A stretch of 64,000 bases of DNA from Gemmatimonadales bacterium (GTDB taxonomy: Bacteria > Gemmatimonadota > Gemmatimonadetes > Gemmatimonadales > GWC2-71-9). This document shows positions 23,241 to 40,408 of this stretch, piece by piece (the first letter of the stretch is position 1; each line of letters opens with the position of its first letter). The DNA lies in NCBI GenBank assembly GCA_037189525.1, contig JBBCJC010000003.1, forward strand, positions 96,001-160,000, read 5' to 3'. Made by a program: the position numbers and the translations under genes. Under the pieces are notes generated by a model. It searched no databases. It saw only the letters and a program-made list of their open reading frames with translations, and was not told the origin of the DNA.

Positions 23241-24329
23241 ATGAAGCGCTTGGTCGTCACGGGATGTCTGATCGCGCTGGCTGGGGGACTCGAGGCCCAA
23301 TCACGAGAGCCGTTGCTTGCCCGTATCGACTCGGTCGTCTCGGCGCATATGGCGAAGAATCAGAACGTCGGGCTCTCGATCGGAATCGAACATCGGGGCG
23401 AACTGCTGCTGGCCCGGGGGTACGGCTCGGCCGATCTGGAAAGCTCGGCGCCGGCCACCGCGGAAACGGTCTATCGGATCGGCTCGATTACCAAACAGAT
23501 TACAGCGGCGCTGGTGCTGCAGCTGGTGGAGCAGGGCAAGGTCGGTCTCGACGACGATCTCACCAAATTCCTGCCCGACTATCCCACCCAGGGCCGCCGG
23601 ATCACGATCCATCATCTGCTGACGCATACCTCGGGCATTCGGAGCTTCACGGGACTCGGGCCGCGCTACGCCACCTTTTCGCGGCTCGATCTGACCGAGG
23701 ATCAACTGATTGCCGAGTTTGCGAAGGAACCGTTCGACTTCGAGCCGGGGGCGCAGTACCGCTACAACAACTCGGCCTACTTCCTGCTCGGGGTCATTGT
23801 CGGCAAGGTGACGGGAACGCCGTATCCGGCGCTCGTGGAACGGGCGCTGTTCGCGCCGCTCGGCCTCGCGTCGTCGTCGTACTGCCACAATACCAGACTG
23901 ATTCCCAAGCGGGCGCAGGGCTACGCGATCGATCAGGGCGTGGTCGTCAACGATCACCCGATCAGCATGAACATCCCCGGGGGCGCGGGCGCGCTCTGCT
24001 CGACCGTCCTCGATCTGCTGGCCTGGCAGCGATCCCTCAATGGCGGCCGAGTGCTCGGTCCGCAGCTGCTGGCCTCGATGCGCAGCGGGAAGGTCGAGTC
24101 CGGTACGACCGGCCAGTACGGGTATGGCGTCGTGGTGGGTGCGCTCCAGGGCCATGCGCAGGTTGCCCACAGCGGCGGAATCAACGGTTTCAGCTCGTGG
24201 CTTGCCACCTATCCGGAGGATCGCCTGACGGTGGTGGTGCTGACCAATAATGCCAGCGGTCAGGCGCCGGTACTCGGCGCCGCGCTGGCTCGGCTCGTGC
24301 TTGGCCTCCCGGCCGCCGTGTCGCAATGA
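23241..24329 (+). CDS. Serine hydrolase, beta-lactamase class C/AmpC-like, secreted (paralog)
   Basis: GSITK, LLTHTSG, YNN, HSGG. Confidence 0.9.
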   Translation: MKRLVVTGCLIALAGGLEAQSREPLLARIDSVVSAHMAKNQNVGLSIGIEHRGELLLARGYGSADLESSAPATAETVYRIGSITKQITAALVLQLVEQGKVGLDDDLTKFLPDYPTQGRRITIHHLLTHTSGIRSFTGLGPRYATFSRLDLTEDQLIAEFAKEPFDFEPGAQYRYNNSAYFLLGVIVGKVTGTPYPALVERALFAPLGLASSSYCHNTRLIPKRAQGYAIDQGVVVNDHPISMNIPGGAGALCSTVLDLLAWQRSLNGGRVLGPQLLASMRSGKVESGTTGQYGYGVVVGALQGHAQVAHSGGINGFSSWLATYPEDRLTVVVLTNNASGQAPVLGAALARLVLGLPAAVSQ

Positions 24330-24402
24330 AGGCAGGCATTCGGTCGTTCCGGCCGGCTGCATCATCGGTTTCACCTTATCGAAGTCGCGGGGAAGCGGGT
24401 AC

Positions 24403-26394
24403 ATGATGAACCGTCTCAAGCAGATGATCGCCGTCTTCACGTTCCTGGTTGCTCTCGGGGCCGGGTCGGCTGTGGCGCAGCGTCCCATGACGCCCGAGGA
24501 CATTCTGGCGCTCAAGCAGGTCGCCGATCCGCAGGTCTCGCCGGACGGGCAATGGATCGCCTATGTGGTGAGCCAGACCGAGCTCGACCAGAACTCCGTC
24601 AACACCGACCTGTGGCTTGTTGCCGCCGCGGGCGGGGAGCCGATCCGGCTGACCACGAGCCCACGGGCCGACAATGCCCCGCGGTGGTCGCCGGACGGCA
24701 AGTGGATCGCATTTATCTCCGCCCGCGAGGAGCGGCCGCAGATCTGGCTGATCCGTCCGAACGGAGGCGAGGCCGAGAAGCTGACGTCCTCGAAGAGCGG
24801 TGTGCAGAGTCTCGCCTGGTCGCCCGACGGAAAGACCATTGCGTACACGGCCCTTCGCGAGTGGACGGCCGAGGAAGAGAAGAAGCAGAAAGACCGGGAT
24901 GACGCGATCGTGGTCGACCAGGATCACCGGTTCAGCCGGATCTGGACCATCGACGTCGCGAGCAAGAAGGCCACCGAAATCGTCTCGGGCGAATTCCAGC
25001 CTTCGGGCCCGCAGTGGTCGCCCGATGGTACCCAGCTGGCGTACGAAGTCCGGCCCACGCCTGCTGCGGACGACGGAAGCCGCTCGGATATCTACATCGT
25101 CACCCTGGCGAACAAAGAGACGCGTAAGCTCTTCGAGAATCCCGGAATCGACAACAGCCCGCGCTGGTCGCCCGATGGCAAGTGGATTGCGTTTGCGAGC
25201 CGGCCCGACGGCTTTGGCCAGGCCGAGCTCAAGGTGATTCCTTCGACGGGTGGCACGCCGCGGGCGATTGCCCCGCGCTTCCTCTATCAGCCCGGGCCGG
25301 TGACCTGGTCGGCGGATGGCCGGACGCTCTTCTTCACGGCGTCGGTGCGCACCACCAATCAGCTCTTCTCGGTGCCCGTGGCTGGTGGCGAACCGAAGCA
25401 GCTGACCTCGCACAACGGTACGATGAGTGGCGCTTCGATGTCCGACGACGGGCGGACCATTACCTTTACCGTGTCGGAGGTGACCAAGCCGAACGACGTG
25501 TACGTGGTGCGCGATCCTGCCCGGTTTACGCCCGTCAAACTCACCGACCACAATCCGCAGCTGGCGGACATCGCGCTCGGCCGGGGTGAGCTCTATCGCT
25601 GGAAGAGCAAGGACGGCAAGGAAATCGAGGGCGTCCTGATCTATCCGACCAACTACGATCCGTCGAAGCGGTATCCGACCATGGCGTTCATTCACGGCGG
25701 CCCGTCCGGCGTGTGGACCCAGGGCTTCCCGGGCAGCTCGGGCAACTACGGCCACATCTGGGCCGGGCGAGGCTGGGTCAGCTTCTATCCCAACGTGCGC
25801 GGCTCGAGCGGTTACGGCGATGCGTTCATGAAGTCCAACGTGCGCGATTGGGGCGGCGGCGACTATCAGGACATCCAGACCGGTCTCGATGAGCTGGTCC
25901 GTCGCGGCATTGCCGATCCCGACCGGATGGGGCAGAGCGGCTGGAGCTACGGTGGCTACATGACGGCGTGGACGCTGACCCAGACCGATCGCTTCAAAGG
26001 GGTGATGGTCGGCGCCGGCTTGACCAACATGTACTCGATGTATTCGACCAACGATCTCCAGACGACGCTCGAGAACTACTTCGGCGCGGAGCCCTGGGAT
26101 GACGAGGAAGCGTATCGCCGCGCCTCGGCGATGGTGTATATCAAGCAGGCCAAGACGCCCACGCTGATCCTGCACGGCCAGCAGGACATGCGAGTGCCGA
26201 TCGGGCAGGCCCAGGAGCTCTACATGGGTCTCAAGAAGAACGGGATCCCAGTCGAACTCGTCTTCTATCCTCGGGCAGGCCACGGCTTGTCGGAACCTCG
26301 GCATCAGCTGGACCGGATGCGGCGCGAGTATGCCTTCTTCTCGAAGCGCGTGCTGGGTGTGGACGTCGCCGACAAGCCGGCGCTGGTTCCGTGA
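24403..26394 (+). CDS. S9 family peptidase (beta-propeller plus alpha/beta hydrolase)
   Basis: Signal peptide, WSPDG repeats, IHGGP, GWSYGG, HGQQDMRVP, GHG. Confidence 0.92.
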   Translation: MMNRLKQMIAVFTFLVALGAGSAVAQRPMTPEDILALKQVADPQVSPDGQWIAYVVSQTELDQNSVNTDLWLVAAAGGEPIRLTTSPRADNAPRWSPDGKWIAFISAREERPQIWLIRPNGGEAEKLTSSKSGVQSLAWSPDGKTIAYTALREWTAEEEKKQKDRDDAIVVDQDHRFSRIWTIDVASKKATEIVSGEFQPSGPQWSPDGTQLAYEVRPTPAADDGSRSDIYIVTLANKETRKLFENPGIDNSPRWSPDGKWIAFASRPDGFGQAELKVIPSTGGTPRAIAPRFLYQPGPVTWSADGRTLFFTASVRTTNQLFSVPVAGGEPKQLTSHNGTMSGASMSDDGRTITFTVSEVTKPNDVYVVRDPARFTPVKLTDHNPQLADIALGRGELYRWKSKDGKEIEGVLIYPTNYDPSKRYPTMAFIHGGPSGVWTQGFPGSSGNYGHIWAGRGWVSFYPNVRGSSGYGDAFMKSNVRDWGGGDYQDIQTGLDELVRRGIADPDRMGQSGWSYGGYMTAWTLTQTDRFKGVMVGAGLTNMYSMYSTNDLQTTLENYFGAEPWDDEEAYRRASAMVYIKQAKTPTLILHGQQDMRVPIGQAQELYMGLKKNGIPVELVFYPRAGHGLSEPRHQLDRMRREYAFFSKRVLGVDVADKPALVP

Positions 26395-26432
26395 TGCCAA
26401 TCACTTCTCTGGATCCCGAACGGTATCCGCTC

Positions 26433-28442
26433 ATGCGTACAAAGCGTGGTCAGTCGCTGGCCGTGGTGGCGTTGCTCGGTGTGCTCGCAGCCGGCGCAGA
26501 GGCACAGAATGTCCTGACGCCGGAACGGGCGGCGGCCATGCGGATGCTGGGGCCGGTATCCCTGTCGCCGGATGGACGGCACGTGGTCTACAGCGTCACC
26601 GTGCCCAACCTGACGGAAAGCTCCACCAACTCGGATCTCTGGTTGGTGCCGTCCGCCGGCGGCGAGCCGATTCGCCTCACCAGTTCCAAGGTGATGGACG
26701 ATCAGCCCGCCTGGTCGCCGGACGGCAAGCGGATCGCTTTCGTGTCGGCCCGTGACGGCAAACCACAGATTTTCCTGATCTCTCCCTTCGGGGGCGAAGC
26801 GGAGAAGCTGACCGATTCCAAGACCGGGATCCAGTCCTTTGCCTGGGCGCCCGACGGGAATCGGATTGCCTACGTCGCCCCGCGCGATCCGACGCCGGAG
26901 GAGGAGAAGAAGCAGAAGGAGAAAGACGACGCGATCGTCGTCGATCAGAACTTCATCCCGGCCCGCCTGCATGTGATCGAGGTGGGCACCCGTAAGAGCA
27001 ATGAGGTCGTCAAAGGCGATTACCAGATCTCGTCGCTCGACTGGTCGCCTAACGGGCGGGAGATTGCCTTCGTGTCGATCCCGACGCCGCGGGCGGATGA
27101 CGGCCGCTATGCCGACATCCTGGTGGCCGATGTCGCATCGGGCACGACGAGGAAGCTGTACGACAATGCCGGCCCCGACGTCGGGCCGCGCTGGTCTCCG
27201 GACGGCGCCTCGATTGCGTTTTCGACCACGGCTGCGAAGGCCGTGGCGATTTCGCAGTCACGCCTGATGGTGATCCCGGCCGCCGGCGGGACCCCGCGTC
27301 CGCTTGCTCGGGACTTTCTCTATCAGCCGGGGACCGTGGCCTGGGCCGCCGACGGAAAGAGCGTCTACTTCTGGGCCTCGGTGCGGACCAGCACGGAGTT
27401 GTTCCATGCACCGGCCGATGGCGGGCCGGCCAAGCAGCTCTCCGACTTTCGTGGTTCGCGAGGGTGGTTCGGCGGTTCCACGCCGTCGCTCTCGAGCGAT
27501 CGCCGCACCATTGCCTTCGGCCGTTCCACCATGGATACGCCGGAGGATGTCTACGTGGCGCGGATCGATGCGCCCTGGGCCATGACCAAGCTCACGACCA
27601 TCAATCCGGAGCTGGCGGACGCGTCGCTGGGTAAGGGCGAAGTGGTGCGCTGGAAGAGTAAGGACGGGATGGAGGTCGAAGGGGTCCTGATCTATCCCGC
27701 CGGCTATCAGCCGGGACGCCGGTATCCGACCGTGGCGCTGATCCATGGCGGACCGTCGGGCGTGTGGGACCAGGGCTTTGGTTCCAGCTGGTACAATCCA
27801 GCGCAGGTCTATGCCTCGCAGGGGTGGGTGGCGTTTCTGCCCAATCCGCGCGGTTCGAGCGGCTACGGCGAGAAGTTCCTGGCGGCCAATCTCCGCGATT
27901 GGGGTGGCGGCGACTATCAGGACATCCAGACCGGGCTCGATGATCTGGTCCGCCGCGGCATCGCTGATCCGGGACGGATGGCGCAGGGCGGCTGGAGTTA
28001 TGGCGGCTACATGAGCGCCTGGACGCTGACCCAGACGGACCGGTTCAAGGCCATCATGGTTGGCGCGGGCCTGACCAACATGTACTCGATGTACTCCACC
28101 AACGACCTGCAGATGGTCCTCGAAGACTACTTCGGCGGCGAGCCCTGGAACGACGAGGAAGCCTACCGGCGCGCCTCGGCCATGGTGCACATCAAGCAGG
28201 CCAAGACGCCGACGCTGATCCTGCACGGACAGCAGGACATGCGGGTGCCGGTCGGACAGGCGCAGGAGCTCTACATGGGGCTCCGCAAGAACGGGATTCC
28301 GGTCGAACTGGTGTTCTATCCCCGGGAGGGTCATGGGCTGAACGAACCCCGCCACGCCCTCGACAAGATCCGGCGCGAGTACAACTTTTTCGCGAAGCAC
28401 GTTCTGGGGGTGGAACCCAACCCCGCGGCGCTGGTTCCCTAG
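26433..28442 (+). CDS. S9 family peptidase (tandem paralog)
   Basis: Signal peptide, WSPDG repeats, IHGGP, GWSYGG, HGQQDMRVP, EGHG. Confidence 0.92.
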   Translation: MRTKRGQSLAVVALLGVLAAGAEAQNVLTPERAAAMRMLGPVSLSPDGRHVVYSVTVPNLTESSTNSDLWLVPSAGGEPIRLTSSKVMDDQPAWSPDGKRIAFVSARDGKPQIFLISPFGGEAEKLTDSKTGIQSFAWAPDGNRIAYVAPRDPTPEEEKKQKEKDDAIVVDQNFIPARLHVIEVGTRKSNEVVKGDYQISSLDWSPNGREIAFVSIPTPRADDGRYADILVADVASGTTRKLYDNAGPDVGPRWSPDGASIAFSTTAAKAVAISQSRLMVIPAAGGTPRPLARDFLYQPGTVAWAADGKSVYFWASVRTSTELFHAPADGGPAKQLSDFRGSRGWFGGSTPSLSSDRRTIAFGRSTMDTPEDVYVARIDAPWAMTKLTTINPELADASLGKGEVVRWKSKDGMEVEGVLIYPAGYQPGRRYPTVALIHGGPSGVWDQGFGSSWYNPAQVYASQGWVAFLPNPRGSSGYGEKFLAANLRDWGGGDYQDIQTGLDDLVRRGIADPGRMAQGGWSYGGYMSAWTLTQTDRFKAIMVGAGLTNMYSMYSTNDLQMVLEDYFGGEPWNDEEAYRRASAMVHIKQAKTPTLILHGQQDMRVPVGQAQELYMGLRKNGIPVELVFYPREGHGLNEPRHALDKIRREYNFFAKHVLGVEPNPAALVP

Positions 28443-28475
28443 CAGGAACGCCGTTCTGATCGGAAGGAGTATCCT

Positions 28476-30029
28476 ATGCGAATGATGACCGCATCGATCG
28501 TCGCCCTCGCCGCCGTGGCCGGAATTCACCCGGCCAGGGCGCAGGAGCGTGTCGATGTTTGGATTCGAAACGGTAGCGTCTACGACGGCACCGGGGCCGC
28601 GCCGCGATCGGCGGATGTCGGTGTGCGCGGCGACCGGATCGTGTTCGTGGGACGGGCTCCGGCCGGTCTGACGGCGGCGCGAACCATCGATGCCAAAGGG
28701 CTGGTCGTGGTGCCGGGGTTCATCGACCCGCACACCCACACGGACGGCGACCTCCGCTCCCCCGAACGACGCGGGTTGCCGGGCTTCCTGCTGCAGGGCG
28801 TCACGACGGTCATCGTGGGCAGCGACGGTCGCGGTCCGATCGACGTTGCCAATGCGCGGGCTGCGATCGATCGGGACGGGGCGGGGACCAACGTCGCGTT
28901 CCTGGTCGGGCATACCACGGCGCGCCAGCGGGTGCTCGGCGGGTCGGCCGCGGCGCCGACGCCGGCCCAACTCGACAGCATGCGTACGCTGATTGCCAAG
29001 GGAATGCGGGAAGGGGCGTTCGGGATCTCGACCGGCCTGTATTACGCGCCCGCCAGCTATGCATCGACCGAGGAGGTCATCGCGCTGTCGAAGGTCGTTG
29101 GTGAGGCTGGCGGATATTACGACTCACACATCCGGGACGAGTCCAGCTATTCGATCGGCCTGCTCGCCGCTGTCGAAGAGGTGCTCCGGATCGGACGAGA
29201 GGCGAAGTTGCCGACGCATATTGCGCACATCAAAGCGCTCGGCGTCGATGTGTGGGGCAAGAGCGGCGAGGTGATCGACAAGATCCAGGCCGCTCGTAAG
29301 GCGGGGCAGAAGGTCACGGCTGACCAGTATCCCTACACGGCGTCGGGAAGCGGTATCGGCGCTTCGTTGCTTCCTCGCTGGGCGGAAGCCGGCGGGCGGG
29401 ATTCGCTCCGTCGCCGTCTGGCCGATCCGACCATTCGCGATACCCTCGTGGCGGAAATGCGCAACAACCTTCGCCGCCGCGGCGGGCCGGACGCGTTGTT
29501 GATCACCGCGGGGCAGTGGAAGGGCCGCCGGCTCTCCGAAGTCGCCAAGCAGACCGGGGTCGATCCGATCGATGCCGCCATCACCATCGTCGCTGGCGGC
29601 GATGCGGGCGTGGCCTCCTTCAACATGCAGGAAGCCGACATCGACAACTTCATGCAGCAGGACTTCGTGGTTACCGGTTCGGACGGGTCGGGAGGACATC
29701 CCCGGAAGTTCGGGACCTTTCCGCGCAAGCTCCGGCGTTATGTGCTCGACCGCGGCGTCATCACGCTCGCGCGCGCCGTCGAAGCGAGCAGTCGTCAAAC
29801 GGCCGAGATCGTCGGCATCGCCGATCGTGGCGTATTGGCGGCCGGGAAATTTGCCGATGTGGTGGTCCTGGATTCGACCCGCCTGATCGACCGGTCGACC
29901 TATGAGGCGCCCGAAGAGCTGGCCGAGGGCATCGTGTATGTCCTCGTCAATGGTCGTGTCGCGGTGGATGGCGGCAAGCCGAACGGGACGCTGGCCGGTC
30001 GCGCCCTCTCTCGGCCGACCCGTCGTTAG
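28476..30029 (+). CDS. N-acyl-D-amino-acid deacylase family amidohydrolase
   Basis: PGFIDPHTH, GISTGLYY, SHIRDE, HIK, ADQYPY, GSDG..HPR. Confidence 0.9.
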   Translation: MRMMTASIVALAAVAGIHPARAQERVDVWIRNGSVYDGTGAAPRSADVGVRGDRIVFVGRAPAGLTAARTIDAKGLVVVPGFIDPHTHTDGDLRSPERRGLPGFLLQGVTTVIVGSDGRGPIDVANARAAIDRDGAGTNVAFLVGHTTARQRVLGGSAAAPTPAQLDSMRTLIAKGMREGAFGISTGLYYAPASYASTEEVIALSKVVGEAGGYYDSHIRDESSYSIGLLAAVEEVLRIGREAKLPTHIAHIKALGVDVWGKSGEVIDKIQAARKAGQKVTADQYPYTASGSGIGASLLPRWAEAGGRDSLRRRLADPTIRDTLVAEMRNNLRRRGGPDALLITAGQWKGRRLSEVAKQTGVDPIDAAITIVAGGDAGVASFNMQEADIDNFMQQDFVVTGSDGSGGHPRKFGTFPRKLRRYVLDRGVITLARAVEASSRQTAEIVGIADRGVLAAGKFADVVVLDSTRLIDRSTYEAPEELAEGIVYVLVNGRVAVDGGKPNGTLAGRALSRPTRR

Positions 30030-30087: not shown

Positions 30088-30384
30088 TTCTCATTCTCGC
30101 TTCATTCTTTCCTCATAGTCGTTAGCAGTCGCCGGGCGTTCAGAGCCCGGGCTTTGCCGCTCATGGCAATCCAACGCGGCCGATGGCGTCGCCGGCCGCC
30201 CCTCCGATCGTTGCATCTCCTCCAATTGTCGTATCGCTAGGTACGTACTACGGATTCTTGGCAATTACTTGCCTGCTCTCGTCTTGTCGAAGCGCGTCCG
30301 ATTTGGAAGATTTGCATCGTCAATCGCGGCCACGCTACACGGGCACGAGCCGCACCAGTCTTCAGCCGAGTAGAATCGATCGTC

Positions 30385-30684
30385 ATGGGGCTCCTGTCCA
30401 TTTTTCGCCGAACGCCGACCGATCGCTTTCGCCGGTCGCCACACGTGAAGTCGGTGGCGCACGGCGATAAGGTCGTGTTGATGGATCTGCGGGGTGAACA
30501 GTTCTACTCGCTGGACGGCATCGCGGTTCGGATGTGGGATCATCTGGCTGAACCATCCACGGCCGAGCGGTTGTCCGACCTGGTCGTTGCCGAGTACGAC
30601 GTGCCGATCGAGGTGGCGCGGGGCGACGTCACGGCGTGCCTGGATGAAATGACTCGGGGCGGACTGGTGTTGGCTGGTCGATGA
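30385..30684 (+). CDS. Lasso peptide RiPP recognition element (B1, PqqD family)
   Basis: 99 aa; VVLMDLRGEQFYSLDGIAVRMWDHL...EYDV...DVTACLDEM..GLV PqqD signature. Confidence 0.92.
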   Translation: MGLLSIFRRTPTDRFRRSPHVKSVAHGDKVVLMDLRGEQFYSLDGIAVRMWDHLAEPSTAERLSDLVVAEYDVPIEVARGDVTACLDEMTRGGLVLAGR

Positions 30685-31070
30685 GCGCACGCCCCTGGTT
30701 TGTGACCGCATTTGCAGCCGTGTCCGTCGCGCGTCTGTCGCTTCGGCTGGCGGGATTCAGCCGCACCATGACGTGGGTCTCGCGTCTGGCGCCTAAGCTG
30801 GCTCGGCGCACGTCGCGGGGCACGGCCGACGGCATCGTGCGGAGCGTCGCCGTTGCGGCGGCATTCTTTCCCGGCCGCGCCATCTGCCTGGAACAGTCGG
30901 TGGCCAGCTATCTGTTGCTCCGGCGTTGGGGGCATGACGTGGCCCTGCGCGTTGGAGTACAGCCCTATCCGTTCCGCGCGCACGCCTGGGTCGAGCTGGA
31001 CGGCCGGCCGCTGCTCGAGAATGAAGACGAGCTGGTCAAGTTCGTGCCGTTTCCCGAGGCCTTCGCATGA
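30681..31070 (+). CDS. Lasso peptide leader peptidase (B2, transglutaminase-like)
   Basis: CLEQS catalytic Cys, GVQPYPFRAHAWVE catalytic His; ATGA coupling to B1 and C. Confidence 0.93.
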   Translation: MSARPWFVTAFAAVSVARLSLRLAGFSRTMTWVSRLAPKLARRTSRGTADGIVRSVAVAAAFFPGRAICLEQSVASYLLLRRWGHDVALRVGVQPYPFRAHAWVELDGRPLLENEDELVKFVPFPEAFA

Positions 31071-32938
31071 ATCCGTTCATGTGTGTGGTCGATCTGGGTG
31101 GCGACACCGTCGGCATCGATGCCCTGGTTGCCGCGCTGCCCGCGGTGGGACGCGCCGGGGAGCGAACCGAGGTGCTGCTGCATGGCGCCTGGGGGGCGGC
31201 TTGGGTACCGGCCGAGAGCAACGGGCGGCCGGCCATTGCGCATCGTGACGGAATTCTGGCCCTCGGCAGTGCGCGGATTACCAACCGGTCGGCGCTGCGG
31301 GGCGGGGCGGTGCGGTCCGGCGCTGGTGATCTGGACCTGATCATCGAGCGGTATCTCGCGCACGACACGGCCGGGTTCCGTGAGCTGGTGGGCGATTTCG
31401 CCGTCGTGCTGTGGGACACCCGCGCCCACCGGCTGATTGCCGTTCGCGACGCGTTAGGCGTCAAGACGCTCTTCTATCAGCGTACCGGCAATCGCCTCGT
31501 GGTCGGGTCGCACCTCGAATGTTTCGAGTCGACTCGCTACGATCGCTCGTTCCTGGGTGACATGCTGCTCGGGTTGCGCCGCGGGACGGAGCGGACGGTC
31601 TTTGCCGGCGTTACCCGTCTGCTGCCCGGGACGTCCCTCACGGCCGACGCCCTCGGTGTCCGCACCAGGCGCTACTGGGATGCGGCGGAGTTTGTGGCCG
31701 CCGATGCCGTTGCCGACGAGCGGGAAGCCATCGCCGAGTTCCGGCGGTTGTTTCGCGAGGCGGTGCTGGCCCAGATGGATGACGGCGCTTCAACCTGGGC
31801 GCAGCTGTCGGGCGGGCTCGACTCGTCGTCGGTGGTCGCCATGGCCCAGCAGCTCGCGGCCGAAGGGCTCGTGTCGCCGCTCGCTGGGACCCAGACCGTG
31901 GTCGATTCGCTGGCCGAGGGCGACGAGACGCGCTATTCCGACGCGGTGGTCCGCCAGTACGGCCTGCGGAACGAGCGCGTGAGCGACTATGCCGCGTGGC
32001 AGGATGACGGGCAGCTGCCGCCCGACTTTGCCGATCCTCGTCTCTTCCTGCCGTTCTATGCGCGGGATCGCGCCCTGCGGGACGTGGTACGCAATGCCGG
32101 CGGCGCGGTGCTGCTGAGCGGGTACGGCGCCGACAACTATCTCTCAGGAACGTACGACTTCCTGGCGGATTGGGTCGCGCGCGGCCGGATCAAGGATGCG
32201 TTGGGCGAGCTGGTCAATCTCGCGGTGGCGTCGCGCCGCTCGTTCTGGGGACTCGGCATCGATCACATCCTGGTGCCGCTCGGGCCGATGTGGTTCAAGC
32301 GCCGGCGGGCCATTCGGGGTCGCGACCTGCCGAACTGGTTTTCGCCGGAGCTGGTGGCGGAGCAGCGTCTGGACGAGCGGATCCTGACCGGAAACGCCGA
32401 TGGCGCGCCGGGCGAGATCTACGCTCGCCTGCAGGCCGAGGAAATCGGCAGCATCGACCTGGCGCTGGAGCGTGGGGTGTTCGAGGAGGGGATCGAGGTT
32501 CGCTATCCGTTCCTGCATCGGCCGCTGGTGGAATTTGCGCTGCGGCTGCCCCTCAAGCTTCGCTTCCGGCCCAACCGGGCCAAGTGGATCCTCCGCGAAG
32601 CCATGGGCGATGCATTGCCCGAGGTGGTGCGGAACCGCCAGGGCAAAGGGGCCATCGACGGGCGGCTCATCTGGTCCTTTCAGCAGCACTATGGAATGCT
32701 CGAACGCCTGGTGGAAGGCTCTCACTTGGCGGAACTAGGGTACGTGAATCGCGAGCGCCTCAAGCAGGCATTGGATCAGGCCCGTCGCGGTGCGACGGAA
32801 TCGGTTTCGAAGCTCTTCTTTACGCTCTCGCTGGAGATGTGGTTTGCTGTGCGTTCAGGGCGGTGGGTGCGACAGGTAGCCCAGGCGCCAAATATCGTTC
32901 TAAATCAACCTGTATCATACCTTTTTCAGGAGTTGTAG
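31067..32938 (+). CDS. Lasso peptide cyclase (C, asparagine synthetase-like)
   Basis: GDFAVVLWD, RDALGVKTLFY, LSGGLDSS, LSGYGAD, RYPFLHRPLVEFAL; lacks N-terminal catalytic Cys of AsnB. Confidence 0.93.
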   Translation: MNPFMCVVDLGGDTVGIDALVAALPAVGRAGERTEVLLHGAWGAAWVPAESNGRPAIAHRDGILALGSARITNRSALRGGAVRSGAGDLDLIIERYLAHDTAGFRELVGDFAVVLWDTRAHRLIAVRDALGVKTLFYQRTGNRLVVGSHLECFESTRYDRSFLGDMLLGLRRGTERTVFAGVTRLLPGTSLTADALGVRTRRYWDAAEFVAADAVADEREAIAEFRRLFREAVLAQMDDGASTWAQLSGGLDSSSVVAMAQQLAAEGLVSPLAGTQTVVDSLAEGDETRYSDAVVRQYGLRNERVSDYAAWQDDGQLPPDFADPRLFLPFYARDRALRDVVRNAGGAVLLSGYGADNYLSGTYDFLADWVARGRIKDALGELVNLAVASRRSFWGLGIDHILVPLGPMWFKRRRAIRGRDLPNWFSPELVAEQRLDERILTGNADGAPGEIYARLQAEEIGSIDLALERGVFEEGIEVRYPFLHRPLVEFALRLPLKLRFRPNRAKWILREAMGDALPEVVRNRQGKGAIDGRLIWSFQQHYGMLERLVEGSHLAELGYVNRERLKQALDQARRGATESVSKLFFTLSLEMWFAVRSGRWVRQVAQAPNIVLNQPVSYLFQEL

Positions 32939-32939
32939 C

Positions 32940-33059
32940 GTGTCTAAGCTTACGTATGTCAAGCCGTCGGTGACCAAGATGGGCTCCGTGGCCGAAAAGA
33001 CCGAGGGCGGTTTCAGGGCAGAGATCTTCGAGATCTTCACGATGCGTGGGGCGCTCTGA
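32940..33059 (+). CDS. Lasso peptide precursor A: MSKLTYVKPSVTKMGSVAEKTE-GGFRAEIFEIFTMRGAL
   Basis: Manual translation; AGGAG RBS within cyclase 3' end, GTG start; leader YxxPxVxxxGxxxxxT with Thr at -2; core starts with Gly and has Glu9. Confidence 0.9.
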   Translation: MSKLTYVKPSVTKMGSVAEKTEGGFRAEIFEIFTMRGAL

Positions 33060-33091
33060 TTCTGGCTGGCTGGGAATCGATGTGAGTAAGA

Positions 33092-33121
33092 GAGCGTTCA
33101 CCACGATTGTGGTGGACGCTC
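33092..33121 (+). other. Stem-loop downstream of the precursor gene
   Basis: GAGCGTTCACCAC-GATT-GTGGTGGACGCTC, no strong U-tract. Confidence 0.6.
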
Positions 33122-33201
33122 GACCCCTTTCCACTTGCCCTCCCGTTCCAAACTGCGCCCGATCCGATAGATTGATAGGGTGACCCAAATACAATATTGC
33201 G

Positions 33202-35760
33202 ATGACCCGCGTTCGCGACGCTCTAGAGCAAGGCACTAGGGCGCTCCGTACTTGGATGTCTAACGGCGGCATTGTCGCTGCCGTTGCCATCCTTGGCGGG
33301 TTGGCCTTTCAAGCCGTCGCTTGGGCGGCGCCTGGCGTGATTACGGCGCGTGCTTACCGCCTTAACATGCTCCTGTCGAATCTCCTGTTCGCGGCATTCT
33401 GGCTTCGAGCCATTCGGAGTCTGCCGCTTGGCGGACGTATTCGGCCGGCCGCGTTCGTAGTTTTTGCAGCCGTTGTTGTAGGCTTGGCCGGGAGTGTGCT
33501 TAGCTCATTCAGCGGCCTTCGAGGCGAGCTGATGCTCGTTGTCGGCGTACTTTATTGGGTCGCCGGGCCCCTCCTCGTCTGCGCGCTGTTGATTTGGCCA
33601 CGTGTATTGAATCGCCACATTCGCCACCAGTACTTGGTCATTGACGTCGGCATCATTGCAATTGCCGTAGTCCTGTTCATCTGGTATGTCCGAGTCGGTC
33701 CAGCGGCGAGTGTTCGCGGTTCGATGTCGTTTGAGGACATGGGCGTCCTTGTGACATCGAGTTTGTTGCTGGCAGGAATAAGTCTCGCTGTTCTCCGACG
33801 GCCAACGCCGGAGTACTCAGTGCCCTTCATGCTCGTCGTGCTTTGGACGGCGGTCATGTTTACCGGCAACTTCGGGCTTTCGTTGTTTGCGGTGCCGGTT
33901 CACTCGATGCAGTATTGGGCAACCCTCTTTTCGATTGGAGGTTTTCTCCTTCCGATTCTTGCTGCAGAGTCACTCCGTATCCGCTACTATCGGGCTCCTG
34001 ATGCTAAGGCCGTCGAAGGTGCCAATCCTATTCCCTGGTTTGCCGTCCTTGCGATCGGTGGCTTCGTCCTCAAAATCGGCATCGAGCAGCTGTCCACTGG
34101 GGTAGGGCTCATCGTCATCGGGGCTGTGGTCACCATGCTCCTGCTCGTGATCCGGCAGGCCATGACGATGCGCCACAACGCCGAGCTCCAGGCCGAGCGG
34201 GCCAATCTCCTGGCGGACGCCAAGATCGCCGCCATGGTGCGCCACACCTCGGACGTCATCATGGTGGTCGACGAGCAGCTCATCGTCAGGTACGCATCAC
34301 CCTCGTCCGAAGCGCTTTGGGGGCGGGCCGCCAGCGTTCTGGTGGGACAGGAGCTGACCACGCTGGTCGAGGCTTCGAGCCGGCGCGAGGTCACCCGTCT
34401 CCTGTCCGAGCGGCTGGCCCGTCCCGGCCAGACCGATCTGGCGCGGGTCCGCGTTCCCGGACCCGACGGCAGTTCGCGCCGGATCGAAGCGGTGGCGGTC
34501 AGTCTGTTGCACGAGCCGTCCGTGCACGGAATCGTGATCACGATGCGCGACCAGACCGAGCGGATCCAGCTCGAGGAACAGTTGGCGCAGGCTCAGAAAA
34601 TGGAGGCCGTCGGGCAACTGGCCGGCGGGGTCGCCCACGATTTCAACAATCTGCTGACCACCATTCTCGGCCATACCGAGGTCGGGCTCGATCTGCTGAC
34701 GGACGACCACCCGGTGCGTGAAGATCTCACCCAGATTCGCCGCGCCAGCGAACTCGCGGCCTCGCTGACCCGGCAGCTCCTGGCATTCAGCCGGAAACAG
34801 GTCGTCGAGCCGAGACTGGTCGACGTGGGCATCTCGCTGGATCAGGTGGTCCGCTTGCTGCGCCGCCTGATCAAGGAACATGTCGAGATCAAGCTGGAGG
34901 TGTCGCGCGATCTGGGGCAGGTGCGGGTCGATCCGTCGCAGCTGGAACAGGTCGTCCTCAACCTGGCCGTCAACGCTCGCGACGCGATGCCCGATGGCGG
35001 CCTGCTGACCATTCAGGCGCGTACGGTGATCGTGCCGGGTCCGCTCGCCGATGCGGTGATTCCGCCGCCGCAGGGCCGGTGTATCGTGGTCGAAGTCGTC
35101 GATACCGGAATGGGGATGGACCCTGCAACCCAGGCGCGCATCTTCGAGCCGTTCTTCACCACCAAACCGATCGGCCGGGGAACCGGGCTGGGTCTGGCCA
35201 GCGTCTATGGAATCGTGAAGCAGAGCGGCGCCGGCCTGGTGGTGCGGAGCGCGCCCGGGAAGGGCAGTACCTTCTCGGTCTACTTTGCCTGGGTCGCTCC
35301 GGAACCCGAACCGGCGACGCCAGCGGCGGTTGCCCCGAGCCGCGAGGGCGCCGCCCTGCCGCGATTTGCCGCGACGATCCTACTGGTCGAGGACGAGACC
35401 GCACTCAGGGAAATTGCGCACAAGGTGCTGGCGCGCGAGGGCTATCGCGTGCTGGTGGCCGCCGACGCCGAGGAAGGGATCACTCTGGCCGAGACCGCGC
35501 CGTTCCCGATCGACATGCTGCTGACCGATGTCGTGATGCCGGGGATGAACGGGGTCGAGCTGGCCCGGCGCCTCCGCAGCAAACGTCCCAACCTTCGCGT
35601 GTTGCTGATGTCCGGGTACCCGGGCGATGACCTGGCCGGCGAGCTCCGCGACCATCAGCGCTTCCTCCGCAAGCCGTTCACGCCGTTCGTTCTGCTGGAG
35701 CATGTCCGGGCCGCGCTGGCCGGTCTCTCGGATCCGACGGCGGTCGAACCGGACCGATAG
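33202..35760 (+). CDS. Membrane hybrid sensor histidine kinase (multi-TM input, PAS, HisKA, HATPase, REC)
   Basis: About 9 hydrophobic segments, then QAQKMEAVGQLAGGVAHDFNNLL, NLAVNARDAM, FFTTK..GRGTGLGL, LLTDVVMPGMNG. Confidence 0.92.
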   Translation: MTRVRDALEQGTRALRTWMSNGGIVAAVAILGGLAFQAVAWAAPGVITARAYRLNMLLSNLLFAAFWLRAIRSLPLGGRIRPAAFVVFAAVVVGLAGSVLSSFSGLRGELMLVVGVLYWVAGPLLVCALLIWPRVLNRHIRHQYLVIDVGIIAIAVVLFIWYVRVGPAASVRGSMSFEDMGVLVTSSLLLAGISLAVLRRPTPEYSVPFMLVVLWTAVMFTGNFGLSLFAVPVHSMQYWATLFSIGGFLLPILAAESLRIRYYRAPDAKAVEGANPIPWFAVLAIGGFVLKIGIEQLSTGVGLIVIGAVVTMLLLVIRQAMTMRHNAELQAERANLLADAKIAAMVRHTSDVIMVVDEQLIVRYASPSSEALWGRAASVLVGQELTTLVEASSRREVTRLLSERLARPGQTDLARVRVPGPDGSSRRIEAVAVSLLHEPSVHGIVITMRDQTERIQLEEQLAQAQKMEAVGQLAGGVAHDFNNLLTTILGHTEVGLDLLTDDHPVREDLTQIRRASELAASLTRQLLAFSRKQVVEPRLVDVGISLDQVVRLLRRLIKEHVEIKLEVSRDLGQVRVDPSQLEQVVLNLAVNARDAMPDGGLLTIQARTVIVPGPLADAVIPPPQGRCIVVEVVDTGMGMDPATQARIFEPFFTTKPIGRGTGLGLASVYGIVKQSGAGLVVRSAPGKGSTFSVYFAWVAPEPEPATPAAVAPSREGAALPRFAATILLVEDETALREIAHKVLAREGYRVLVAADAEEGITLAETAPFPIDMLLTDVVMPGMNGVELARRLRSKRPNLRVLLMSGYPGDDLAGELRDHQRFLRKPFTPFVLLEHVRAALAGLSDPTAVEPDR

Positions 35761-36366: not shown

Positions 36367-36767
36367 GTGATCCTCCTTGGTATTGGCGAACTTCACAACA
36401 CTATTCCCACTCGATCGAACCCAAGTTCCGAAAACAGAAAAGGCGCGACCCGGGCCCCGAAGAGCCCGATTTCGCGCCTACCATCGACGAATCCAGATGA
36501 TTCGCCAATGAGGCCAGCTCGACCTGATGCCGAGCCGCCGATTGTCCTGCCACTCACACACTACGCAGTCGCGCCCGATGCGTCAATAGCCAAAATTCGG
36601 TCGCACCGGGTTCGCGCCCATCGGTGCAAGATTTCCGGTCGCGAACCGTCGCCTCTTCGTCCACGGTGTGCGCGGCGTCCACCTGCGCAGCTCACGGCGG
36701 GAGGGGTGGGCCGGAATCGGTCACCGTGCATTGGCTACAATGGAGGCCGTCTCTGGCACAGGTTCGC

Positions 36768-39686
36768 GTGTCGCTGTCATCACGATACGATCCCCGTCGC
36801 GTTGCCGGCGTGGCGGGGCGGGTCGTCAGTGCGCTGGGCCTGCTGGGTCTGGCGGGATGGCTGATCGACTCGCCGGCGCTCGTGCGTCTTCTGGACGGTT
36901 ATCCGCCGCTGGTGCCGAACGCCGGTATCGCGCTGGTGGGGGCCGGCCTCGGTCTGACCGGCCTCGAGCGGGATCGGGGCGAGGTGGCGAGGCTCGGCGC
37001 CAGCATCGCGCTCCTGATCGGGATGCTGACCTTTGCGCAGCATGTATCGTCGCTCGATCTCCGGATCGACGGGATCTTTCTGCCCCGCGACGGCGGAGAG
37101 CTCGTCACCGGTCGCGATCCGGGGCGGATGGCTGCTGTCTCCGCGCTGTCGCTGACGTTGGCCGGCATCGGGCTCCTGGCGCTGCTGGCCGAAGCGCGCA
37201 GCAGCACACTGGCGATCCTGGCGGGCGTGGCCGGGGCTACCGTCGGAACGTTAGGCGGCACGGTGGTGGTCGGCTACGCTACGGGCGCCCTCACCGATCT
37301 TCGGCATGGCATCGTGGCCGGCATGTCGGCCTACGAATCGGTTGCGTTCCTGCTGCTCGGCTTGGGGATGGTCGGATATGCCTGGGAGCACGATCGCCCG
37401 GTTCGCTCGCTGCCGTCGTGGCTGGCGCCGGCCGTCGGGGTTGGCGGACTGACGACGGCTCTACTGGTCTGGAAGGCGCTAACCAGTCTCGAGGGCGATC
37501 GGCTCGATGACCGGCTCGGGGTCGAAGCGTCGGTGGTGCGGCAGCGGGTGGCCGTCGAGATCGACGGGCTGGTCAAGGATCTGGACCGGTTGGCGCGGCG
37601 CGCCATCCGCCTGCCGGCGTTCTGGGAAGTCGATGCGCAGGCAGCGCTGCGGGAGGGCAGTGTCTACGCGGCTGTCGGGTGGGTGGGTGCCGACGGCACC
37701 GTGCGGCGGGCGGCTCCGACGACGGCGGCGCCGATGATTGCGGAGATCGTGAAACAGGGCGTGACGCCGGTGGCCGATACTGTGCGCTTGCTGCGCTATC
37801 CGGCGCAGACGGTGTCGGCCGGGTTGCTGCAGGACGGCCGGTTCCTGGCGCTCCGGGTCGCTTCGTGCGACGAGGACAGGTGCGCAGGCGACATGGTCGG
37901 TTTTTTCGACCTGGCCGCGGTGCTCAGGTCCGGTCTCTCGGCGCCGCGCCGCGAAATCTGCCTCTCGATTACGACCGGTGGCCTCGAGCTGCTGGCTGAC
38001 GACCGGCCCGAATGTGTGTTCAGTCGGGGCGCATCGGCGTATCTGGCTGTCGGCTCGATGTCGTGGACGATCACGGCCGCGCCGACCACGGCGATGATGG
38101 CGTCGGCCGGATCGGCGTTGTCGGCGGTGGTGCTGAGTCTGGGCGTCGTGGTGAGCGCGTTGCTGACGGTGAGTCTGCGGCTGGCGCAGCGATCATGGGG
38201 ATTGGCGCGCGAGGTGGAGCGGCGGCAGGTCACCCGCGCGCTGGAGACCGCGACGGACGGGCTCTGGGAGTGGGACCTGCCGGACGGCCCGATGGCGCGC
38301 CGGGCGATGTGGCGCGGACTGGGTTATGCCTTTTCGGAAACGGACCGCGCGGGATGGGAGGCGCTGATCCATCCGGACGATATCGACGGCGTTCGACGCG
38401 GCGTCGACGAGTATCTGCGCGGCGCGGCGGAAACGCTGAGCCTCGAGTATCGGATTCGCGACGCGCGGGGCCAGTGGCACTGGATCATCGATCGGGCCCG
38501 GGTCACCGAGCGTACCGGGTGGGGCGCCCCGCGACGCATGCTCGGCATCCATGGTGACGTTACGGAGCGGCGTCGCGCGGCGGATCAGGTCCGGACCAGC
38601 GAGGAGCGGTTTCGCGCCATCTTCGACAGCGCCTTCCAGTTTCAAGCCCTGCTCGATCTCGAGGGGCGCCTGCTGCTCGCCAACCGGACCGCACTCGAGT
38701 TTGCCGGTGTGCCGCTCGACGCGGTGCGCGGCAGCCGGCTCTGGGAAACTGCCTGGTGGTCGGAGGCGGATGAGGAGGGGCGGGCCCGGCTGATCGATGC
38801 GTGCCGTCGCGCGGCCGATGGAAAGACGATCCAATATCAGGACGAAGTCACCGGCTCGGGAGGCCGCCGCGCGACGATCGAGTTTTCGGTCAAACCGATT
38901 CGTACACCCGACGGATCGGTGGGACAGCTGCTGGCCGAGGGTCGGGATGTTACCGAGCGAAAGCGGGCGGAGGATGCGCTCAAGGAGCTCGATACGTTGA
39001 GTACGATGGGGCGACTCGCGGCCCGGGTTGCGCACGAGATCAATAATCCGTTGGCCGGGATCCAGAACTCGTTCATGCTGATCAAAGACGCGGTCTCACC
39101 CGATCACCCCTACCATCGGTACGTCGGGGCCATCGGTCGCGAGATCGATCGGATCGCGAGCGTGACGCGTGAACTGTACGGTCTCTACCGCGCCGAGCAT
39201 GCGAACAAAGAGCGCACCTCGGTGGCAACCGCCATCACCGATGCGGTCGAACTGCTCAAACAGGTCAATCGGGCCGCGGACGTCGAAATCAGAGCGGACA
39301 TCGCGGGCGCGCCGGCGATCATGCCGTTTCCCGATGCGCTGATTCGGCAAGTGGTCTTCAACCTGGTCCAGAACGCCGTGGAGGCCTCGCCTCCGCGCGG
39401 CATCGTTTTCGTGACGGCGGATGTCGTCGACGAGGGCGGGAAGCGATGCTTCCGGCTGGCCGTCCGGGATCAGGGCGACGGAGTGCCGGATACGCTCAAA
39501 GAGCAGATCTTTCAGGATTTCTACAGCACCAAGAGCGGACTCAGAACCGGCGGGATGGGGCTCGGGCTCTCGATCGTCCGGAGCTCGGTGCGCGCGTTAG
39601 GCGGCGAAATCGACATTCGTGAACCCGATGGAGGCGGCGCCGAGTTCGTGGTGCGCCTTCCGATCAATGAGGAGGTGTCCGTATGA
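36768..39686 (+). CDS. Membrane PAS-domain sensor histidine kinase
   Basis: TM helices, two PAS/PAC domains (IHPDD, WETAWW), AHEINNPL, NLVQNA, GMGLGL; start uncertain. Confidence 0.9.
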   Translation: MSLSSRYDPRRVAGVAGRVVSALGLLGLAGWLIDSPALVRLLDGYPPLVPNAGIALVGAGLGLTGLERDRGEVARLGASIALLIGMLTFAQHVSSLDLRIDGIFLPRDGGELVTGRDPGRMAAVSALSLTLAGIGLLALLAEARSSTLAILAGVAGATVGTLGGTVVVGYATGALTDLRHGIVAGMSAYESVAFLLLGLGMVGYAWEHDRPVRSLPSWLAPAVGVGGLTTALLVWKALTSLEGDRLDDRLGVEASVVRQRVAVEIDGLVKDLDRLARRAIRLPAFWEVDAQAALREGSVYAAVGWVGADGTVRRAAPTTAAPMIAEIVKQGVTPVADTVRLLRYPAQTVSAGLLQDGRFLALRVASCDEDRCAGDMVGFFDLAAVLRSGLSAPRREICLSITTGGLELLADDRPECVFSRGASAYLAVGSMSWTITAAPTTAMMASAGSALSAVVLSLGVVVSALLTVSLRLAQRSWGLAREVERRQVTRALETATDGLWEWDLPDGPMARRAMWRGLGYAFSETDRAGWEALIHPDDIDGVRRGVDEYLRGAAETLSLEYRIRDARGQWHWIIDRARVTERTGWGAPRRMLGIHGDVTERRRAADQVRTSEERFRAIFDSAFQFQALLDLEGRLLLANRTALEFAGVPLDAVRGSRLWETAWWSEADEEGRARLIDACRRAADGKTIQYQDEVTGSGGRRATIEFSVKPIRTPDGSVGQLLAEGRDVTERKRAEDALKELDTLSTMGRLAARVAHEINNPLAGIQNSFMLIKDAVSPDHPYHRYVGAIGREIDRIASVTRELYGLYRAEHANKERTSVATAITDAVELLKQVNRAADVEIRADIAGAPAIMPFPDALIRQVVFNLVQNAVEASPPRGIVFVTADVVDEGGKRCFRLAVRDQGDGVPDTLKEQIFQDFYSTKSGLRTGGMGLGLSIVRSSVRALGGEIDIREPDGGGAEFVVRLPINEEVSV

Positions 39687-40408
39687 GCGAGCGAGGCCAG
39701 ATTCTTCTCGCGGACGACGAGGAAGTGTTCGGCGCATCGACCGCGGATCTGTTGCGGCGGCAGGGCTACGGATGCGATGTCGTTCCGGATGGGGGTACCG
39801 CCCTGGCTGCCGTGGGGCAGGGGCAGTACGACTTGCTGATCAGCGATCTCGAAATGCCCGGGAACGAGGACCTGACCCTGGTACGGCAGGTGTCCGAACG
39901 GGTGGGCGGGTTGCCCGTCATCATCCTGACCGGGTTTCCCTCCACCCGGTCGGCGATTGCCTGTATCGAACTCCCGGTCGTGGCCTATCTCGTCAAACCG
40001 GTTGCGTTCGATCAATTGCTGAGCAAGGTCGAGGCGGCGGTGGCTCGCTTTCGGTCGTACACCGCGATGCGACGGACCGAAGAGCGGCTACGAGAGTGGA
40101 ATCGCGAAGTCGCGACCGTGGCGGCGCCGGGGGCGGGCGGGGGCCCGGAATCGATCGACGCTTTTTTGACGCTCACGCTGCGCAACGTCATGGGATCATT
40201 GACGGACCTTGGGGAAATGAGTCGCGCGCTGGCGCAAAAACAGCAGGGGCCGCATGCCTGCCAGCTGGTCAACTGTCCGAGGGGGTTGCAACTCCAGGAG
40301 GCGGTACGCGAAACGGTCCAAGTGCTGGAGGAAACCAAAGGCGCTTTTCGCTCCAAGACACTGGCCAACTTGCGACGACAGTTGGAGGTGCTGCTCGATA
40401 CCAACTGA
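39683..40408 (+). CDS. Response regulator with an unrecognised C-terminal output domain
   Basis: ILLADDE, DLLISDLEMPG, LTG, YLVKP; ATGA overlap with kinase. Confidence 0.88.
   Translation: MSERGQILLADDEEVFGASTADLLRRQGYGCDVVPDGGTALAAVGQGQYDLLISDLEMPGNEDLTLVRQVSERVGGLPVIILTGFPSTRSAIACIELPVVAYLVKPVAFDQLLSKVEAAVARFRSYTAMRRTEERLREWNREVATVAAPGAGGGPESIDAFLTLTLRNVMGSLTDLGEMSRALAQKQQGPHACQLVNCPRGLQLQEAVRETVQVLEETKGAFRSKTLANLRRQLEVLLDTN

Follow-up and report, generated by a model that had tools for sequence, protein, structure and literature searches.

A new lasso peptide family beside a membrane hybrid histidine kinase in Gemmatimonadota: a possible agr-like self-signal

What does a lasso peptide do for a producer that has neither an exporter nor any evident antibiotic logic? 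The pairing of a lasso cluster with a sensor kinase in the window, that is, the whole stretch of 64,000 nucleotides of a Gemmatimonadales bacterium analysed here, addresses this question. By the account of a 2024 paper, nothing had been established on the part that lasso peptides play in physiology (PMC11371967). A preliminary description of the window had drawn attention to a short precursor gene; in our view, the conserved sensor kinase encoded downstream is more interesting than the precursor itself.

The precursor gene A (32940-33059; this gene and the other elements of the cluster, including the kinase, are all on the + strand) encodes 39 amino acids. As described previously, it starts with GTG one base past the cyclase stop at 32938, and the AGGAG ribosome-binding site (32928..32932) is located within the 3' end of the cyclase gene, 7 nt ahead of the GTG; a comparable purine-rich site is found ahead of the precursor orthologues. 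The 22-residue leader (32940..33005) contains the residues of the lasso leader signature on which the initial identification was based, namely Y-17, P-14, V-12, G-8 and T-2 (pattern YxxPx[LV], G-8, T-2), and in the 17 precursors that were aligned out of the 18 collected, five positions (Y-17, P-14, T-11, G-8 and T-2) are invariant. The NCBIfam model NF033521 scores the leader at 18.5 bits (E 0.0015), just under its cut-off of 19. A six-frame search of the 4.65 Mb genome with a loose leader pattern yields 22 matches; the match to the precursor exceeds chance because it is the only one that adjoins B and C genes. Among 7 close pairs, the leader codons show 21 synonymous vs 7 non-synonymous changes and, by this count, the leader is under purifying selection. 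We are highly confident that the ORF is a real lasso precursor gene. It was called unannotated, which holds for the ORF track from which it was first read, whereas the exact protein is present, without a name, in a collection of 15 billion proteins. A single new lasso sequence is, by itself, ordinary.

The precursor is preceded by B1 (30385..30684), a RiPP recognition element (RRE) of the PqqD family (99 aa; PF05402, E 2.8e-14; 36.8 bits with NF033536, under the cut-off of 80), B2 (30681..31070), a lasso leader peptidase (129 aa; NF033537, 91.1 bits, cut-off 33; PF13471) with the Cys69 and His101 catalytic motifs, and C (31067..32938), an asparagine-synthetase-like lasso cyclase (623 aa; PF00733; SGGLDSS motif) whose best NCBIfam match is NF033535 (E 2.3e-57, 195 bits, under the narrow cut-off of 525). 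The B1/B2 and B2/C pairs overlap and all three genes are intact; the enzyme genes expected of a class II lasso system are present, namely those for an RRE, a Cys/His leader peptidase and a cyclase adjoining B and A. The closest named cyclases among the matches listed are 37-39% identical and come from Gemmatimonadaceae or Gemmatimonadales; in the cyclase tree, two of the three closest group with genomes of the window's order. The location of the precursor after C, initially regarded as an oddity, is the usual order in this lineage and adds no novelty; in the distant loci checked, the precursor motif is found 3' of the cyclase in 8/16 and none was found 5'.

The 17-residue core (33006..33059, including the stop) is hydrophobic with a basic tail and, as reported before, lacks Cys and contains Glu6 and Glu9; the recomputed cyclised monoisotopic mass of 1895.972 Da agrees with the earlier hand calculation (~1895.97 Da). 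Conservation across the aligned cores lends support to the earlier reading of a class II peptide with a predicted Gly1-Glu9 macrolactam. Gly1, Glu9 and Arg14 are invariant in all 17 aligned cores and also in the 18th, so that a small residue at position 1 and an acid at position 9 occur in 18/18; Glu9 is the sole acid at positions 7-9 in 15/17 cores, and Glu6 is present in just 4/17. A disulfide is not expected, with a core devoid of Cys and a single Cys in 2/17 relatives. The cores are 15-21 aa long; ring positions 3-8 are highly variable (entropy of 2.0-2.9 bits over the 17 aligned cores), and positions 11-12 are mostly M-S, within a conserved stretch E9-x-M-S-x-R. Of the plugs originally proposed, R14 stands, F11 is unlikely (position 11, two residues past the ring, is Met in 13/17 cores) and position 13 is variable. 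Lasso tails can be shortened to the residue beneath the lower lock (PMC13352647), and because R14 is invariant and 5 family cores terminate at residue 15, Arg14 is likely to be the lower plug of the predicted lasso. There is a very slight chance that no threaded Gly1-Glu9 lasso is formed and that the product is instead unthreaded, closed elsewhere or not made at all: the leader and the cyclase both fall under curated NCBIfam cut-offs and a tail of 6-8 residues may slip out of a 9-residue ring, but the B1/B2/C set is complete with its catalytic motifs, G1/E9/R14 are invariant, the leader is apparently under purifying selection, and a ring closed on Glu6 would have 6 residues, fewer than the known range of 7-9 (PMC13352647).

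The suspicion that this core is unlike any described lasso peptide was borne out within the literature, the PDB and the 15-billion-protein collection, a range outside the MIBiG and RODEO sets, where no identical or similar one was found. The precursor has only chance matches (E of at least 0.5) to PDB sequences in a library that excludes chains of <20 residues, i.e. most lasso cores; a plasmid search gave no match; and the literature search, which covered mostly open-access texts without supplements, yielded no paper with these cores and no characterised lasso from Gemmatimonadota. Lasso clusters have been reported in 29 marine Gemmatimonadota MAGs, where, in the account given, they are assumed to be antibacterial (PMC11316326). 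To judge from the sequences, the core family G-x7-E-x-M-S-x-R is new and its cyclase lineage takes very different predicted rings. The cluster resembles the fuscanodin/fusilassin type, with its split B1/B2 and minimal A-B1-B2-C set (PMC13352647), in the leader motif, RRE, peptidase and cyclase, as well as in Gly1, the acid at position 9, the absence of a disulfide and a core of 15-21 aa. Unlike that type as described, it has the core family defined above, the order B1-B2-C-A, no transporter or isopeptidase, a fixed downstream membrane hybrid kinase, a conserved operator and a probable Gemmatimonadota host.

The 18 orthologous precursors come from one probable Gemmatimonadota genus and one neighbouring genus, with one precursor per genome at a single chromosomal site across most of the genus. 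Orthologues of B2 (53-88% identity) were detected in 17 of the 21 further genus genomes, with one more in a genome of the neighbouring genus. The precursor profile matches 17/22 genus genomes and, among 401 genomes sampled across the class, gives 4 matches (three of the genus and one, weak, in another family). As for the 5 genus genomes without a match, contigs of G002 and G015 stop within the cyclase and kinase orthologues lie at other contig ends; G014 and G018 are 84% and 76% complete, respectively; and G013 (97% complete) keeps the operator, the promoter and a truncated B1 (L233:11064-11336) followed by an rRNA operon, with no B2, C, A or kinase found in this genome.

The genes upstream of B1 are of a different nature. 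The region 24250-30029 encodes an amidohydrolase and a tandem pair of S9 (Dpp5-like) peptidases; these genes show synteny in part of the genus, including genomes without lasso genes, and acyl-CoA ligase and enoyl-CoA hydratase genes often intervene between this region and B1. We considered these S9 peptidases as lasso isopeptidases and rejected them, given that they score 210 and 244 vs a cut-off of 400 and fit Dpp5 better; they are unlinked or lasso-free in G007, G013 and G018. No AtxE2-family isopeptidase belongs to the cluster. Astexin-type isopeptidase clusters are likewise read, in the source that describes them, as non-antibiotic (PMC13352647), and the other main cyclase clade of the phylum, which adjoins S9 peptidase genes, recalls these; unlike the astexin type, the S9 peptidases of the window fall under the isopeptidase cut-off and are present without lasso genes elsewhere. 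Lasso genes of other kinds also occur in the phylum. The same genome contains a second, unrelated, low-GC lasso cluster (G000:C2:327000-330000, L039; 45% identity in B2 and 26% in the cyclase) with a Cys-containing precursor 3' of the cyclase. In another cyclase clade (L042, L046, L047, L054, L137), the precursors share a tail of the G-S/D-V/L-G-F/Y-G/F-L/V type, with one or two precursors per cluster and, in many cases, an S9 peptidase gene that faces them. Two tandem precursors with aromatic-rich tails (L040:9792-10109) are present in a related cluster, which has no adjoining kinase.

Downstream, 142 nt past the precursor, begins the gene for a hybrid histidine kinase of 852 aa (33202..35760), the candidate receptor, with a membrane domain followed by PAS, HisKA, HATPase_c and receiver domains (Pfam). 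A kinase orthologue lies directly 3' of the precursor in 17/18 loci, which derive from one common ancestor and do not represent 17 independent events. The exception, G019 (87% complete), keeps the predicted -10 box with no kinase ORF behind the precursor, and no kinase orthologue was found in this genome. In G005, a two-ORF insertion (L021:4505-5727), which we take to be similar to an IS3 element or transposase, splits the kinase sensor, with A, B and C intact. A kinase is encoded at most 1.2 kb past the cyclase in 0/61 distant lasso loci among the matches listed. These are what remained of a set of 64 further lasso-like loci, each with 2 kb or more of downstream DNA and not a random draw, once three with a kinase had been set aside (a duplicate of an in-family locus and two members of the sister clade); for 20 more loci, the available DNA was too short. 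The background loci came from pattern scans, based on the cyclase alignment, of genome and metagenome collections, in which the matches listed were mostly distant enzymes. Of the roughly 4,200 genes in the genome itself, about 28 are kinase ORFs. The reverse search gave a concordant picture: a profile of the membrane domain matches 103/401 genomes, and in the top group (at least 145 bits, 14/401 genomes) the precursor is directly upstream in all 13 cases with upstream DNA, vs 0/15 of the weaker homologues fetched (from roughly 90) that adjoin lasso genes; these 15 include 12 proteins with GGDEF and EAL motifs, 2 kinases and 1 truncated protein. Further downstream, a second membrane kinase and a receiver-domain protein are encoded (36624-40408); this pair was examined as possible partners and dismissed, that kinase being syntenic in the two closest relatives only.

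The non-coding elements of the locus are conserved as well. A 14-bp palindrome of the GGCAA-N4-TTGCC type (30260..30273), the predicted activator site of the lasso operon, precedes B1 in 17/17 loci with upstream DNA, always 10 nt ahead of the -35-like box of a predicted weak sigma-70-type promoter (30284..30312; -35-like box 30284-30289, 17-nt spacer, -10-like box 30307-30312), the spacing of which was read by eye from 17 aligned upstream regions, the consensus scan having called no promoter there. A sigma-54 element was considered and rejected: the GG-to-GC spacing is 9, and the sigma-54 consensus has 10. The palindrome is nearly unique, with about one copy per genome, which suggests a dedicated activator and points to the palindrome as its operator; no wider regulon was found in the genome, where the second-best site falls within a gene. 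Past the precursor, folding predicts a 13-bp hairpin (33092..33121), a putative transcript end or stabiliser, and a hairpin of differing sequence is found 3' of the precursor in 17/17 loci; there is no T-tract at the hairpin, the terminator scan made no call, and the fold of the whole precursor-kinase spacer (z -1.78) is not significant alone. A hexamer TA[ACG]ATT (33168..33173), the predicted -10 box of the kinase gene, occurs within 170 nt past the precursor in 17/17 loci, compared to a mean of 0.5 and a maximum of 4/17 in shuffled sequences, for a pattern chosen from the same sequences on which it was scored. Given the conservation of both the hairpin and the hexamer, the kinase gene is likely to be transcribed from its own promoter.

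One alternative explanation of the linkage is that the kinase is a mere neighbour inherited from the ancestor of the genus, with no functional tie to the peptide. A single ancestral event accounts for the in-family synteny, the upstream peptidase and amidohydrolase genes are also partly syntenic, and a kinase with a separate predicted promoter downstream of a hairpin, missing in G019 and broken in G005, is compatible with independence. Nevertheless, we find this explanation improbable. The genes past the kinase and those upstream of B1 differ between lineages while the kinase stays; the close sensor clade is found only with lasso genes; in G013 the kinase disappeared along with B2, C and A, although one deletion suffices for this; a different kinase clade occupies the same position in the sister family; and neutral linkage predicts no sided divergence of the sensor.

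The membrane sensor (about aa 1-325 of the kinase; window 33202-34176) consists of ten helices in the AlphaFold model (pLDDT 74) and belongs to no Pfam family (11/11 members without a match below E 0.15). The domain family comprises 428 representatives at E 0.001; kinases, GGDEF and GGDEF-EAL proteins make up most of the best 40 longer matches that were scanned, and most of the family occurs without any lasso gene. A single-sequence search retrieved 2 proteins. The atlas neighbours of the sensor are unnamed and mostly from Actinomycetota, with MASE3/4 clusters appearing only at 0.83-0.84; Foldseek produced no match at E 0.001 with the sensor model, and the best structural match (Z 10.7, rmsd 7.5, 242 aligned) is in the generic helical-bundle or 7TM-like range.

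The sensor diverges faster than the rest of the protein. At 60-70% cytoplasmic identity, the lasso-linked sensors are 34% identical (59 pairs) vs 56% for GGDEF-EAL controls (40 pairs), and at 70-80%, 44% (11 pairs) vs 60% (21 pairs); the clock is rough, given that the lasso-linked pairs come from one genus and the control pairs span genera, and that output types may differ in rate. The cytoplasmic part of the kinase remains 56-97% identical while the peptide ring varies. In the neighbouring, unrelated membrane kinase, the membrane part is 83-87% identical in pairs where the sensor shows 74% and 59%, a comparison of two genome pairs in which the 59% value belongs to the insertion-split copy. 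The divergence is also sided. In 11 lasso-linked sensors, the outer helix halves are 22% and the inner ones 38% identical, vs 59% for both halves in 11 non-lasso controls, and the outer loops are 11% identical vs 45% in the controls. This difference survives 2-residue boundary shifts (permutation p 0.0002-0.0024 for three boundary choices, with positions that are not fully independent). The four predicted inner loops contain 13 basic residues vs 4 in the five outer loops. The fastest divergence of the sensor is on its predicted outer face, the sidedness being defined by the predicted topology.

Domain-wide positive selection on the sensor was rejected (dN/dS of 0.10-0.30 in 8 pairs). Ring similarity tracks sensor identity strongly over all pairs (0.65 vs 0.37, with kin counted repeatedly), but across 8 lineages the cyclase is tracked at least as well (rho 0.38, p 0.03 for ring and sensor; 0.60, p 0.006 for ring and cyclase; partial Mantel 0.31, p 0.07), so that the lineage-level signal does not set ring-sensor co-evolution apart from shared ancestry. 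A complex prediction for the sensor domain and precursor residues 10-39, modelled as a linear chain and not as a lasso, gave a score of 0.02 (mark 0.32) and speaks neither for nor against binding. Between the end of the cyclase gene and the sensor region, precursor included (32860-34100), the GC content is 49-58% vs 63-68% in the surroundings, a dip that is also seen in the two closest relatives and is weaker elsewhere. Most close pairs also show a higher dS for the sensor than for the flanking genes, possibly a trace of segment exchange.

The cyclase clade adjacent to the in-family one is found in 23/73 genomes of another family of the class; 20 of 25 places were fetched and combined with three loci found earlier. 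The layout in this sister family is a two-helix kinase and an OmpR-type regulator, B1, B2, C and A, followed by a soluble PAS hybrid kinase. The latter is directly past the precursor in 12/18 loci with enough downstream DNA and absent in 6; the upstream response regulator is present in 18 loci, in 17 with its kinase in view, and in the other five the upstream DNA is missing or nearly so. The three downstream kinases that were placed in a FastTree tree form their own clade. The sister rings are predicted to close on Glu8, the tails are acidic, and some cores keep E-I-M-S-x-R/K. No transporter was seen beside the sister clusters. The sister clusters (L041, L136, L250, L251-L270) are often near a menaquinone-biosynthesis gene, and in L041, L135 and L136 the DNA ahead of B1 carries short tandem direct repeats. 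To the extent that sequence defines them, both of these related lasso lineages are surrounded by signalling genes, the kinases being different.

A further possibility is that the lasso remains inside the cell and acts on the adjacent kinase from the cytoplasmic side, at its PAS, dimerisation or ATPase domain, as a stable timer or switch. Lasso peptides can bind histidine kinases: sviceucin and siamycin I are lasso inhibitors of FsrC and VanS, and resistance mutations map to the kinase ATPase domain (PMC11872507). Their likeness to the present case is in the action on histidine kinases; they differ in being class I, disulfide-bridged peptides that, as described there, target kinases of other species and are not cognate self-signals. 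Such intracellular action is compatible with a cluster that lacks an exporter and with sister kinases that have no membrane segment, some sister cores sharing the E-x-M-S-x-R loop. We deem it quite unlikely, as it leaves unexplained both the outer-face divergence of the sensor and the variation of the ring next to a cytoplasmic kinase that is 56-97% identical.

Another alternative is an antimicrobial or competition peptide, with a kinase that senses the own or foreign peptide, or stress, and controls production or protection, by analogy with bacteriocin and lantibiotic clusters that include two-component regulators. Most of the characterised lassos were discovered as antimicrobials (PMC13352647), variable rings suit an arms race, as may a hydrophobic core that ends in a basic tail suit an antimicrobial, and a standard kinase-regulator pair is encoded upstream in the sister family. 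Antimicrobial lassos, however, typically carry a transporter (PMC13352647), and no transporter or immunity gene was found in the in-family loci, nor is an exporter or isopeptidase gene conserved among them; a single precursor at one chromosomal site across most of the genus resembles a housekeeping signal more than a mobile weapon. We therefore regard an antimicrobial role as unlikely.

The reading that we prefer, and to which we assign about an even chance as a whole, is that the cell exports the lasso as a self-signal, which the membrane sensor of the adjacent kinase reads in an agr-like manner. It is favoured by the kinase linkage in 17/18 loci vs 0/61 distant ones (among the matches listed), the divergence concentrated in the predicted outer face of the sensor, the absence of an exporter, which antimicrobial lassos typically have, and of an isopeptidase, the variable ring combined with the conserved leader and E9-x-M-S-x-R, the operator conserved at an activator-like position, and the two-component genes that also flank the sister clusters. 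In the proposed scheme, B1 would bind the leader and B2 would cut after T-E, following established lasso chemistry, with activities deduced from the genes and motifs. C would then link Gly1 with Glu9, closing the ring over the tail and leaving Arg14 beneath it, as the invariance of these residues suggests. The peptide would exit the cytoplasm via a route not encoded in the cluster, bind the outer half of the ten-helix domain and shift the kinase activity, with the variable ring providing lineage-specific dialects like those of staphylococcal agr. Phosphate may pass via the kinase's own receiver to an unlinked regulator acting at the palindrome before B1, which would close a feedback loop; this phosphorelay and feedback is the weakest step. 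Several observations weigh against the self-signal model: the cluster holds neither an exporter nor a cognate response regulator, the precursor is kept in G019 without the kinase and in G005 with a split one, the soluble sister kinases, absent in 6/18 loci, fit a cytoplasmic target or a loose linkage equally well, the sensor family is mostly lasso-free, ring variation follows the cyclase at least as closely as the sensor, the sensor gives no sign of domain-wide positive selection, the in-family loci go back to one ancestor, and the sidedness depends on a predicted topology. The specific proposal of a cognate autoinducer or kin signal, genus-wide, with lineage-specific rings read by an unnamed ten-helix sensor, is one that we put forward tentatively, at somewhat below an even chance.

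The likeness to staphylococcal agr consists in a gene for a cyclised ribosomal peptide beside a histidine kinase with a polytopic membrane sensor; in AgrC, the kinase core is conserved and the sensor is about as divergent as the peptide (PMC5007282). Here, too, the peptide gene is linked to a membrane-sensor histidine kinase, and the sensor is more divergent than the kinase core. Unlike agr, the system has lasso enzymes in place of AgrB, a ten-helix sensor without a Pfam match and a hybrid PAS-kinase-receiver architecture, with no linked response regulator or exporter, neither of which is conserved in the in-family loci. The host phylum is a two-membrane one, which is another difference from the hosts of agr. 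At most, the lasso system would work like agr; it is not an agr system. The morphosin cluster of Streptomyces sp. L06 is similar in that it is flanked by regulatory genes and has a proposed signalling role, and differs in its XRE/DUF397 regulators and the absence of a kinase, the ligand role being the authors' speculation (PMC11371967). In mostly open-access texts, we found no paper in which a lasso is the cognate signal of a linked kinase, and the tables of the RODEO lasso survey may list kinase-linked clusters.

A signalling role is testable with five genes in E. coli, and nature supplies 18 peptide variants, most with a matching sensor. Should the signal model fail, the lasso family would still be new, and its cyclase lineage appears to accept very different rings. 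If the model is true, it would provide a natural physiological role for lasso peptides, the first ligand, or ligand class, of an orphan sensor domain that is widespread among kinases, diguanylate cyclases and phosphodiesterases, and a similar arrangement for signalling in the sister family.
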